Source of the DNA: Eledone cirrhosa
Taxonomy: Eukaryota
Direction: 5' to 3'
Length of the DNA stretch: 64,000 nucleotides
Assembly (NCBI GenBank): GCA_964016885.1
Contig: OZ024749.1
Location: 18,290,001-18,354,000, forward strand
Every line of letters begins with the position of its first letter. Within the stretch, counting starts at the first letter, position 1. This document shows positions 12,695-16,373 of this stretch, piece by piece. The position numbers were made by a program, and so were the translations under genes. The notes below the pieces were generated by a model. It was not told the DNA's origin, searched no databases, and saw only the letters and a program-made list of their open reading frames with translations.

Positions 12695-14194
12695 TTATAT
12701 ATATGTTGTGTTATTATATCTACCTATGTGGGATTTATTTTGGGTGTTTTGATTGTTCCCATCTATGTACTCTATTTTGTTGAGGTAGCCTGCTTTACTA
12801 AGGGCGTTATCGTAGTACTCGGCGTGTTCCTTAAACACTTGTATGTTAGAAGATAGACCCGAGATTCTAAGGGAAATATTTTTAGGGATAGATTTAATTA
12901 TAGAGATGGGGTGGTTAGACCCAACATTTACGTATTTGAGATTTTCATTCAATTTATGAAACGGTTTAATCAAACCAGAGTTTAAATTGAGTGTGACATC
13001 CAGGAAGTTAACTACTTTAAGGTTGTATTCATATGTTATAGTTAGTCCTATTTCGAGTAGTAGTTTTCTTATGTCTTTGCGTAGTTTTTCTAGTTTTTGG
13101 TTATTAAGGTTTTTAGCTAGGAGGAGAACATCGTCGCGGTATATTCCGCCGTGGAGATTGCTGAATATTTCCTGGAGTCTAAAGGCGATAAATAACCCCA
13201 CAATATCAGTTATTTCCGCCGAATCGTTAGAGCCCATTGTTATGTCAAAGTTAGAGGGTCTATCTTTACGTACCCAATAACTGTTCTCAAATTTGACTAT
13301 AGTTTTCCTTGCTTCTAATATAATCTTAATTTCATCGTTTGTAAGGTCAGAGTTATCCTTAGCAAACTTAATGGCTCTATTCAAAGTTTCAGGTGATATC
13401 GATGAGTAATATTCATCGATATCAAACTGGATAAACTTAGATTTATTCTTATTGCTAATGCTATTAAACCATCTTATTGCTTCTTGGGTCTTCCCCCAGA
13501 GTTTAATGTTAACCTTAGCCTTAATTTGGGGGATGATTCTATCTAAGATATATTTGCTTATTTTACCTATATCTGATTTAGAGGGGCAGATTAATCTAAT
13601 TTTAGGGTCATTATCAAAGTTTACCTTGTGGTCCTTAAGATTGAAGGTGGGTACCGCCGGTAAGAGTGGTCCTGTCCTATCTTCGATTCCGAGATTTTTC
13701 ACTATTTCGCATGCCTCATCATTGACGTGCTTAAGGGTTACTTCACTCGTTTTTCTATATTTTTTATGTAATTCTTTTCGAATGAAGTTGTTGTATGTAG
13801 TGCAATCCATAGTGTGCAGGTTTGATGTTTTGTCCGCTTTTACTACAATTCCTTTGGTGTTTTTAAGGTCGTCCAGTAGTTTTTTAATATCTTTCTGTAA
13901 TTTGCTGTTGGTGTTGCGTCCTTTGAATTTAATTTTAAGGATTAAGTTCATAAGGTCCTGCTCAAATGCATCTAATAGTGGGTTGGTGGGTGGGTTTTTA
14001 CAAGTCCTAAAACCGAATTTGTTGTTTACACCACTTTCTAATGTTGAGTTCATACGGCTTCTATCATAGTGGAGCGTTTTCCACCTGACACGTCGAATGA
14101 ATTCATTAGTTTTTTTAATCATATTCAATAAATATTCCTTTCTACCTTGGGTTGGTATGTTTTTGAGTGACATATCCAGGTAGTGTTTTTCCAT
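12695..14194 (-). CDS. Family B polyprotein, N-terminal and RT part (ends at the insertion boundary)
   Basis: [50 protein letters not shown]; 499 aa uninterrupted. Confidence 0.88.
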   Translation of the reverse strand: MEKHYLDMSLKNIPTQGRKEYLLNMIKKTNEFIRRVRWKTLHYDRSRMNSTLESGVNNKFGFRTCKNPPTNPLLDAFEQDLMNLILKIKFKGRNTNSKLQKDIKKLLDDLKNTKGIVVKADKTSNLHTMDCTTYNNFIRKELHKKYRKTSEVTLKHVNDEACEIVKNLGIEDRTGPLLPAVPTFNLKDHKVNFDNDPKIRLICPSKSDIGKISKYILDRIIPQIKAKVNIKLWGKTQEAIRWFNSISNKNKSKFIQFDIDEYYSSISPETLNRAIKFAKDNSDLTNDEIKIILEARKTIVKFENSYWVRKDRPSNFDITMGSNDSAEITDIVGLFIAFRLQEIFSNLHGGIYRDDVLLLAKNLNNQKLEKLRKDIRKLLLEIGLTITYEYNLKVVNFLDVTLNLNSGLIKPFHKLNENLKYVNVGSNHPISIIKSIPKNISLRISGLSSNIQVFKEHAEYYDNALSKAGYLNKIEYIDGNNQNTQNKSHIGRYNNTTYI

Positions 14195-14398
14195 TGTTGT
14201 GGTTGCGTTTGCTGTGTGGGTTGCTCGACTTTACAGGAGGTAAATATACAGTATTTTCCGTTGTGTTGTAATATAAATATTACACACAGTAGATTATCAG
14301 CTCACGTAGAGTTTGCTCGACGGTTCCAGTTGTAGTTCCAAAAGTAATCCGGAGAAAAATAGAAATATTTGAATGGATACAGTTTAGTTGAAAGGAAT

Positions 14399-14518
14399 TT
14401 ATTGACACGTGTTTCTATAACAGTTACATAACCTAAAACAGCTGCTATCTACAAACTTTTAGTTATGCAGACATTCAATATTTCAATGTTATTATTTACT
14501 GTCATTTCATCAGAATAA
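14399..14518 (-). ncRNA. HHR with a branched stem II insertion, family B
   Basis: Reverse complement of 17210-17329. Confidence 0.75.
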
Positions 14519-15080
14519 TATTACTGAGGACCTATTTAGTTTTTATAGAGAATATTAGGAGGGAGGGGTGAAGTTGTTAGAAGAATAGTTGAAGGAGTGG
14601 TTTTTCGATAGCAGTGAGAATTCTTGGTGGCAGTGAGTAATTAGATTCCCATCTGTTGTTTTGACATTTTTTATAGAATATATTATTGGTTATTTTTCTA
14701 AATCTATAGAAGGATTAGAGATAGTAAAGATATGCGTGGTTGGTTTTGTGTTTGCACTTAATTAACATTCAGACTTAAATTTTTCTTTCAAGTGTACGTA
14801 TCCTTTCACCCACGCATTCACACACAAATATATTTGCACACCTCTACAAAATACATATACTCACAATTCACATATTCATACTTACATATATATACACATG
14901 CATACACATATATATACACACATGTATTCATGTACATACATACGCGCTCATGTGTATACATTTTCATACTCAACTTATCTTTATATACACACGTACAGAC
15001 ACACACATATATACATACATACTCTAGTCCATGTGTACACACATACACATACATACACATCCATATACACATATATACAT

Positions 15081-15162
<82 letters not shown>

Positions 15163-15428
15163 ACTTTAATACATGAATACACTTACATCTAGCTATACAC
15201 ATCAAACATATATATATATTTACTTATTTATATACATTTTCACATATATATACATACTTATGGACGTTTTTAGACACATTCATTATCGCATATTTGTACC
15301 TATTCTCATCAGCATATCTTTCCATTATTAGTGTGGTAATTTAAGGTTATTAATATATGTTGAGAAGAGATTGTTTTTATATTTTTCTAACTAGATTAAG
15401 GTTTATATAGTTGGGGGATGTCCCTCTT

Positions 15429-16373
15429 TTATGTAATATTCGGCTTGTAGTGGGAAAAAAGGATTTTAGTTCTGTGACGGCAGAATAATGTTCGTTCAAT
15501 TCTGTTATTCAGTAGTTTCTTCTTGTGTGTGATTATGTAATAAATCTCAAGATTACACAATTTGCAGAAATTTTGGCTCCTGGAAAAGCTTTGGGTTTTA
15601 GCTAATTTTTCCCATTTTAGGGTAAACTTTTGATCGCTATCCCTGAGCGTCCAAGCTTTTTCTGCTAAAGTTGTTACATTTCTTTGGCTCTGGTGTTTTA
15701 TTGAGTAAGAATGCCTATACAATCGAGATTTAAACGATGTTGCCGTTGATCCCACGTAATACCACTCGTTGCCTCCGGATTTAATGGTACACTTATAAAT
15801 AATATTTTTTTCCAGGCAGTTATTGCCGAGGGGGCAGTTGTCAGGATAGGTGCAGTTACAGTTGTGTACGTTGGGTTTTCTCTGGAGTAGTATTGCGGAC
15901 GAACTTAGGTGTGGTTTATTTATGTTCTGTAGTGTATTGTCTACTGTTTTTTTTGTGTTCTTTGTACTTAAGTTCTTAGTGTTTTCGTTTAACCTTCTAG
16001 TATTGATCTTTTTTATGTGTTGTTCAAGGTTTAACGCTGTAGAGTATGACAGTCTTATAGTGGTAGGGTTTAGGATTTTGTGGTATTTGTGTGATGTGGG
16101 AAAATGTCTTTTAATTATTTTAAAGAAGAGTACTGGTAAATTTGTACTAATGGAACTATTGTATTCGGGGTTATACCATAAGTACTCTTTGCATCGCTTT
16201 CTATTAGTTTTGTTTGTTGGTTTACTGGTGTGCATACTATGGTAGTAAGTGTGGTTTGGTGTTGTGTTATTATATCTACCTATGTGGGATTTATTTTGGG
16301 TGTTTTGATTGTTCCCATCTATGTACTCTATTTTGTTGAGGTAGCCTGCTTTACTAAGGGCGTTATCGTAGTA
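15429..16373 (-). CDS. Family B polyprotein, C-terminal part (linker plus GIY-YIG endonuclease)
   Basis: [29 protein letters not shown]. Contiguous with the RT in copy 50196-51707. Confidence 0.85.
   Translation of the reverse strand, partial: YYDNALSKAGYLNKIEYIDGNNQNTQNKSHIGRYNNTTPNHTYYHSMHTSKPTNKTNRKRCKEYLWYNPEYNSSISTNLPVLFFKIIKRHFPTSHKYHKILNPTTIRLSYSTALNLEQHIKKINTRRLNENTKNLSTKNTKKTVDNTLQNINKPHLSSSAILLQRKPNVHNCNCTYPDNCPLGNNCLEKNIIYKCTIKSGGNEWYYVGSTATSFKSRLYRHSYSIKHQSQRNVTTLAEKAWTLRDSDQKFTLKWEKLAKTQSFSRSQNFCKLCNLEIYYIITHKKKLLNNRIERTLFCRHRTKILFSHYKPNIT

Follow-up and report, generated by a model that had tools for sequence, protein, structure and literature searches.

We analysed a 64,000-nucleotide stretch of Eledone cirrhosa DNA (contig OZ024749.1, positions 18,290,001 to 18,354,000), here called the window, in which positions 12704-17365 hold an insertion of a Penelope-like element (PLE). 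The locus under study, on the minus strand from 16374 down to 12704, is one arm of this two-armed, head-to-head inverted insertion, and the arm stops inside the open reading frame (ORF) of the element. Its structure is genuine and somewhat uncommon, a variant of an insertion type already known. Positions are those of the window, and coordinates within the repeat unit carry the prefix u and count from the start codon (u1).

The long arm (12704-16374, minus strand, 3671 bp) starts at u1377 with the 3' part of the ORF, including the endonuclease, and continues through the 3' untranslated region (UTR) with its TA run, a hammerhead ribozyme (HHR) motif, the 5' UTR and the ATG at 14194 into the 5' part of the ORF, ending at u1491. 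The initial annotation had described a circularly permuted element, and this order of parts stands. A masked self-BLAST of the window showed that 16260-16374 is identical to 12704-12818, both on the minus strand, over 115 bp (100%); the terminal repeat had been reported slightly short, as 16261-16373 and 12705-12817 (about 113 bp). The repeat sets the unit at 3556 bp, the size first estimated, so that the arm comprises one unit plus 115 bp.

What had been taken for the start of the insertion at 16373 is the meeting point of two 5'-truncated arms, because inverted element sequence, previously overlooked, goes on to 17365. This short arm (16372-17365, plus strand) overlaps the long one by a 3-nt microhomology at the inner junction (16372-16374). 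It begins with a 47-bp piece of the endonuclease region, where u1993-2035 lies, passes a short tandem duplication of about 28 nt and a jump of about 418 nt to u2453, and then runs through the 3' UTR and a second HHR copy (core at 17215) to a position called site 1 below (u3388-3392). It matches the family at 99.4% over 721 bp in the same masked search. Both element 3' ends of the insertion therefore face outwards. On the right, about 350 bp of (TA)n (17366-17713) form the remainder of the target, while the left flank is a short degenerate TA filler of 17 nt (12687-12703). The long arm had been said to end inside the ORF at a TA run; the ORF end holds and TA does abut it, but the run amounts to only about 8 nt of perfect repeat. 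The junction at 12703 gave one match genome-wide, the locus itself. Outside the insertion, 12628-12686 (minus strand) is a remnant of another repeat family with PLE-like structure (81 exact probe matches genome-wide).

The 3' part of the ORF (15429-16374, minus strand, about residues 460-773, stop at 15429) carries a CxCX5C linker and a GIY-YIG-type endonuclease, and the 5' part (12704-14194, minus strand, about residues 1-497) carries a reverse transcriptase core with RWK, DKT, FDI and YRDD and is cut off at the aberrant 3' end. That the two halves belong to one frame of about 770 residues, as first proposed, was confirmed by the copy at 50196-51866, which is open across the break, and by natural copies encoding 773 residues; the unbroken frame was found in 14 of 30 loci examined (one of them with 770 residues; neighbouring loci overlap). 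Read linearly, the DNA of the window copy cannot encode the complete protein. In the 773-residue translation, RWK lies at residue 37 and DKT, a change from DKG, at residue 121; the endonuclease shows YKC...YVGS, and CxxC and CxH stand beside the conserved E and N in a stretch ending FCRH. The motif Gx[KR][FY] had no match in this translation, and no CCHH motif was seen by eye in its endonuclease. A Pfam search matched none of three ORF fragments, and some members of the Atlas look-alikes at 0.96-0.99 bore HTH_animal, GIY-YIG or RVT_1. Perfect TA runs behind 236 normal ends of the family had a median of 26 nt. Judged by RWK, DKT, CxCX5C, the GIY-YIG-type motif, CxxC and CxH, which fit the published description, the element classifies as a Hydra-type PLE; its unit of 3556 bp, with a microsatellite-rich 3' UTR, exceeds the clade's tendency to stay below 3 kb, which is no strict rule. 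We take the family to be new, although the supplements of PMC8557442 may already hold it or its HHR type.

The predicted type I hammerhead at 14399-14518 (minus strand) lies in the putative pseudo-long terminal repeat. It would have a 5-bp stem I, a core at 14513-14507, an 8-bp stem II closing a long hairpin and a minimal stem III with a 4-nt palindrome, with the predicted cut after 14404. A descriptor of the motif matched once per unit on the sense strand only and in 0 of 300 shuffled sequences; an Rfam scan of the window returned no HHR, only microsatellite and hairpin microRNA noise. The motif is nearly invariant, being intact in 213 of 230 occurrences as counted from the 12 commonest variants listed. 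A further type I HHR-like descriptor match at 42108 (minus strand), with a 7-bp stem I, belongs to a different repeat.

Two fixed 3' ends and their pairing

Exact matches in the genome numbered 628 for a mid-ORF probe, so that the family includes no fewer than 628 copies of this region, and 188 for a probe placed directly before the ATG. Of the 628 places we examined the first 100 listed, which all lie on C1, and of the 188 ATG-crossing places 100, on C1-C4. The survey set consisted of loci L044-L212 and the three insertions of the family in the window, with known duplicates dropped from the end counts; short insertions are under-counted because both probes favour long copies.

Outer 3' ends fell at site 1 (u3392; 14359, minus strand) in 143 cases, at site 2 (u3507; 14244, minus strand) in 117 and elsewhere in 13, with 6 unscorable. 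The two sites thus take 260 of 273 scorable arm ends, and TA loose ends at both places were also present in contigs of public runs. The 115 nt between them (14244-14359, minus strand) form a tail, and the long arm of the window reads through both sites unbroken. A survey of 3' ends along the unit had been suggested in the initial annotation: it yielded the two fixed sites, and no other sampled arm ends near u1491. The annotation correctly called a 3' end within the ORF unusual, as only 6 of 273 scorable ends are of this kind.

Among 108 inverted junctions (a few loci overlap), 92 combined site 1 with site 2, one had site 1 twice and none had site 2 twice; the remainder had an odd end (8) or were unscorable (7). 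Normal junctions therefore carry one of each site in 92 of 93 cases. Arms of this family stop at two fixed sites, one of each per two-armed insertion, and the long arm in the window lacks site 2. Given this pairing and the presence of site 1 on the short arm, site 2 would be expected on the long one. The pairing is the known pattern of a tail at one end only, here of 115 nt, and it fits the priming at two sites that a Poseidon element showed in vitro. The two arms of an insertion differ at subfamily markers by 0.48/kb, compared with 12.4/kb between random copies, which indicates a shared template.

The family is young, with a median private divergence of 0.13%. Runs labelled as four organisms contain 57-72% of the words sampled from 12640-14800, which points to a young family common to several related species. 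Two further insertions in the window, 32144-34280 and 49059-51894, both combine site 1 with site 2, the site-2 arm of the latter measuring just about 32 bp. Among the sampled loci, L161 is the sole two-armed insertion with site 1 on both arms. The terminal redundancy of the window copy (112-115 nt) matches the 115-nt spacing of the two normal start sites; we found no mechanism for this, and it may be chance.

Templates longer than one unit

Arms crossing the ATG (88 rows, two counted twice) passed the next HHR cut site in 68 cases and reached the previous ORF in 24, and their lengths form a continuum up to more than 8.6 kb. Since arms longer than one unit are common, the 1.03 units of the window arm are ordinary and no special sign of a circle. 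The earlier claim that the template exceeded one HHR-to-HHR monomer read once was supported: site-1 and site-2 arms over about 45 and 160 nt, respectively, all cross the predicted cut site, so their templates were uncut or re-ligated. The further step, from just over one full turn to a circular template, fails at this locus because the arm's 5' end is where the inversion joins and its length, one turn plus 115 nt, lies within the family's range.

Evidence on the form of the template comes at its best from other copies. In 25 of 27 pairs of successive turns, drawn from several subfamilies, the haplotypes agree, and the turns of L136 have nine variants in common that are absent from every other sampled copy. 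No sharp pile-up of 5' ends was seen at the HHR cut or at a single start site, the only trend being a broad 2-3-fold rise at u50-400 and u3300-3510. A small template, circular or read repeatedly, is best suggested by L185 (G000:C3:218048400-218057800, 3858-5680), a two-armed insertion of a 321-nt unit running from u3327 through the 5' UTR to u92. Each arm carries the unit three times and contains three junctions, the arms end at site 1 and site 2, and all six genomic copies of the junction lie within this insertion; the unit is retrozyme-like but has no HHR core. Other ORF-skipping junctions were found in L146 (u144/u3324, both arms), L094 (u110/u3317) and L181 (u260/u3172), and three of these four loci, L185 included, rejoin just upstream of the 3' strand of HHR stem II. 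In the three-unit tandem L135 (G000:C2:283731500-283741400), turns 2 and 3 have private changes in common that turn 1 lacks, which reflects either duplication after insertion or an assembly effect.

The family evidence is compatible with a circular template and also with a concatemeric transcript, and homogeneous tandem donors or end-to-end template jumps would give the same turn pattern. Tentatively, the family might transpose from an HHR-cut, re-ligated RNA circle of 3.6 kb, with one complex priming the two target strands at fixed sites 115 nt apart and passing the junction by strand displacement; the window copy would then have been mis-primed at a cryptic look-alike of site 2 and copied once round. 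We hold this proposal to be doubtful. If true, such a mode would regenerate partial tandems and promoters in each cycle. The available parts of the literature searched contained no demonstration of a circular RNA from a full-length autonomous PLE.

The end inside the ORF

Thirteen arms have odd ends, six of them in the ORF (L046, L058, L147, L176, L124 and the window copy). In four of these the end lies level with the 5' end of the partner arm or a little upstream, at -25 (L046), -30 (L058), +69 (L176) and +425 nt (L147) from it, a closeness that has p = 0.00045 under a uniform null with a statistic picked after viewing the data. The long arm in the window ends at u1491, +502 nt from the partner's 5' end at u1993. 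The geometry is that of twin priming, with a site-1 arm starting at u1993 and the other arm ending upstream of it. In L1 elements, twin priming was reportedly described by Ostertag and Kazazian in 2001. The end also lies 1 nt from the unit's best look-alike of the site-2 motif: an AC-rich 15-mer at 12705-12719 (minus strand) is identical at 13 of 15 positions, hence with 2 mismatches, to the motif that precedes site 2 by 16 nt, while six other odd ends have 6-9 mismatches. It abuts TA, the family's target, and the long arm fits the single haplotype of L136 and L192 in both of its halves.

These data lead us to favour mis-priming over a later deletion: with a probability that we put at about 0.55, the long arm ends in the ORF because twin priming hit a wrong place within an RNA that exceeded one unit in length. 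In such an event both nicked strands of the (TA)n target would prime complementary DNA (cDNA) on the same template. The cDNA from site 1 would extend to u2453, skip to u2035 and stop at u1993, while the other target strand would prime 502 nt further upstream, at the AC-rich look-alike at u1491. This second cDNA would run 3671 nt through the HHR, and the two ends would be joined through the 3-nt microhomology. Two templates would serve, a circular monomer or a linear multimer, uncut and no shorter than 5.6 kb, and the locus does not discriminate between them. Any target-site duplication would be hidden by TA on both sides.

Several observations weigh against mis-priming. The 502-nt gap fits twin-priming geometry but is weak alone; it is the largest among these ORF ends and unremarkable by itself (about 0.14-0.28, uniform null). 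The four twin-priming-like cases have arms of 212-452 bp and non-TA flanks, whereas in the window copy the arm measures 3.7 kb and the flank is TA. The look-alike is out of the normal register, given that normal ends lie 16 nt past the motif; a search for copies ending at the AC-rich motif itself gave 0 matches, and the idea that normal copies end right there was rejected. The other sampled arms show no hot spot at u1491. In addition, odd ends joined to TA also arise secondarily: L124 is a truncated duplicate of L125 that ends at u1942 beside TA, L116 has u1680 joined to the TA run of the element itself, and L070 ends at u2425 in TA.

Such secondary breaks speak for an ordinary two-armed insertion whose 5.7-kb long arm reached site 2 and later lost u1492-u3507 together with most of the left TA run. 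This history would restore the site-2 end predicted by the pairing rule (92/93) and would explain the short left TA run; arms of 5.4-6.8 kb do exist (L119, L132, L059, L093, L101). It requires a second event, however, and a random break within 1 nt of the best site-2 look-alike is only rarely expected. Equally short TA runs occur at 43 of 236 normal ends, and the remnant at 12628-12686 gives no sign of a deletion, because copies of its family often stop at the same point (L033, L037, L040). We regard a later deletion as possible, if the less probable course. Extension of a normal arm (u1377-u3507) by break repair, with u3508-u1491 copied from another genomic copy, would accord with the excess of private changes in u1-1491 (8/1491, compared with 2/1694 in the rest; Fisher p = 0.053). 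Both halves of the long arm match L136 and L192, however, which makes such repair very unlikely, and site 2 bears no scar. A donor switch inside the long arm was likewise rejected, as there is no haplotype break.

The initial annotation had read this locus as an insertion with a single arm, primed internally and copied once round a monomer circle that the HHR had generated. The intact HHR motif would suit this, as would the homogeneous multi-turn arms (no subfamily-marker difference in 25 of 27 turn pairs, in several haplotypes), the 2-3 times denser 5' ends at about one turn and the junction of L185, found nowhere else in the assembly. The insertion is two-armed, however, and its length is unexceptional for the family; homogeneous tandem donors yield the same pattern, tandem units can duplicate after insertion as in L135, and the L185 unit lacks the HHR core. 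Moreover, uncut RNA was the main substrate in the Poseidon system and HHR mutants still inserted, according to the available part of that report (PMC11167929). A single-armed origin of this kind is thus hard to credit for the window copy. A misassembly, by a chimeric join at the TA run or a collapsed repeat, might be suspected because permuted Penelope copies in Adineta were attributed partly to assembly in the part of the account available (PMC3846280). An error would also accord with seven runs in which no contig or read bridged 12703 and no read showed the empty site, although these runs represent other individuals or species or collapsed contigs and are uninformative on this point. Against an artefact, the locus lies inside a large contig, is flanked on both sides and has private variants; the join falls in a 17-nt filler, not in a long repeat; and tandem arrays of the same family of at least 8 kb were resolved in this assembly. 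An assembly error therefore seems very unlikely.

Neighbourhood and comparison with known systems

The window is crowded with PLEs that sit in TA runs. Fragments of other PLE families with similar motifs lie at 506-4761, 9765-12597, 21679-23841, 36439-37856, 46506-48368 and 56053-57546. The right TA flank of the insertion adjoins a long interspersed nuclear element (LINE; 17872-21026, plus strand) with frames resembling an AP endonuclease and a reverse transcriptase and a stop at about 19679; by eye, we take it to be RTE-like. Pieces of a reverse transcriptase-like ORF at 57681-60234 (plus strand) include an asparagine-rich stretch, like the N-rich inserts described for Adineta Penelope elements in the available part of PMC3846280. 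The family is more useful than the locus, being young, with at least 628 mid-ORF copies, two base-precise start sites, one per arm, and many multi-turn arms. How PLE tandems are rebuilt and what the HHR does are open questions in the accessible portions of PMC8557442 and PMC7761336; the family makes the choice between circle and concatemer directly testable at the RNA level and is a good system for the form of the PLE template.

The comparisons that follow are with the available portions of the cited sources. Hydra-clade elements have a single ORF with a C-terminal GIY-YIG domain, RWK, DKT, CxCX5C, an HHR and a (TA)n target (Craig et al. 2021, PMC8557442), and their copies form partial tandems, next to which lies an inverted copy truncated at its 5' end, with only one end carrying a tail. 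The inverted structure of two 5'-truncated arms has long been described for PLEs (PMC8557442; PMC3846280). The present family resembles the clade in all of these respects, from the ORF plan, RWK/DKT, CxCX5C and the CxxC and CxH near E/N to the HHR, the TA target and the tandem with its inverted copy. It differs in having a 3.56-kb unit and a 115-nt tail, where the clade is "generally <3 kb" with a tail of 30-40 nt, and a long stem II hairpin in the HHR; the arm of the window copy, in addition, ends in the ORF.

For PAc, the Poseidon element of Anolis, in vitro work showed priming at two AC-rich internal sites, with extension of both strands of the target (Frangieh et al. 2024, PMC11167929). 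Both systems have two start sites downstream of the HHR cut with the tail between them, an AC-rich context and an AT-rich target, both extend the two strands, and both need a template that is uncut or re-ligated at the HHR. The PAc sites lie 30-40 nt apart inside the ORF start, whereas those of the present family lie 115 nt apart in the 5' UTR, where a strict one-of-each pairing could be counted on genomic copies. Twin priming of L1 is alike in that the second strand primes internally, upstream of the stop of the first cDNA, and in its products: head-to-head inversion, microhomology joins, template switches and internal deletions, which are frequent at the inversion point (10.1101/2024.08.27.596794). 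The internal site of L1 is spurious by rule, whereas the present family normally uses a fixed, downstream second site and only exceptionally primes internally; moreover, the internally primed arm in the window is longer than a unit, a length out of reach for a monomer L1 RNA.

Non-LTR retrozymes share the type I HHR, tandem copies and a proposed circular RNA template copied by PLE machinery (PMC7229834, PMC7761336, 10.64898/2026.07.22.740005), and the 321-nt repeat of L185 resembles them. They are non-coding, 170-400 nt long and have circles shown by experiment, whereas the present family is an autonomous 3.6-kb unit seen here at the DNA level. Permuted, overlapping ORF halves are likewise present in the Penelope copy Pen3 of Adineta vaga; Pen3 sits on isolated contigs that may be collapsed (PMC3846280), whereas the window copy is flanked and was compared across its family.

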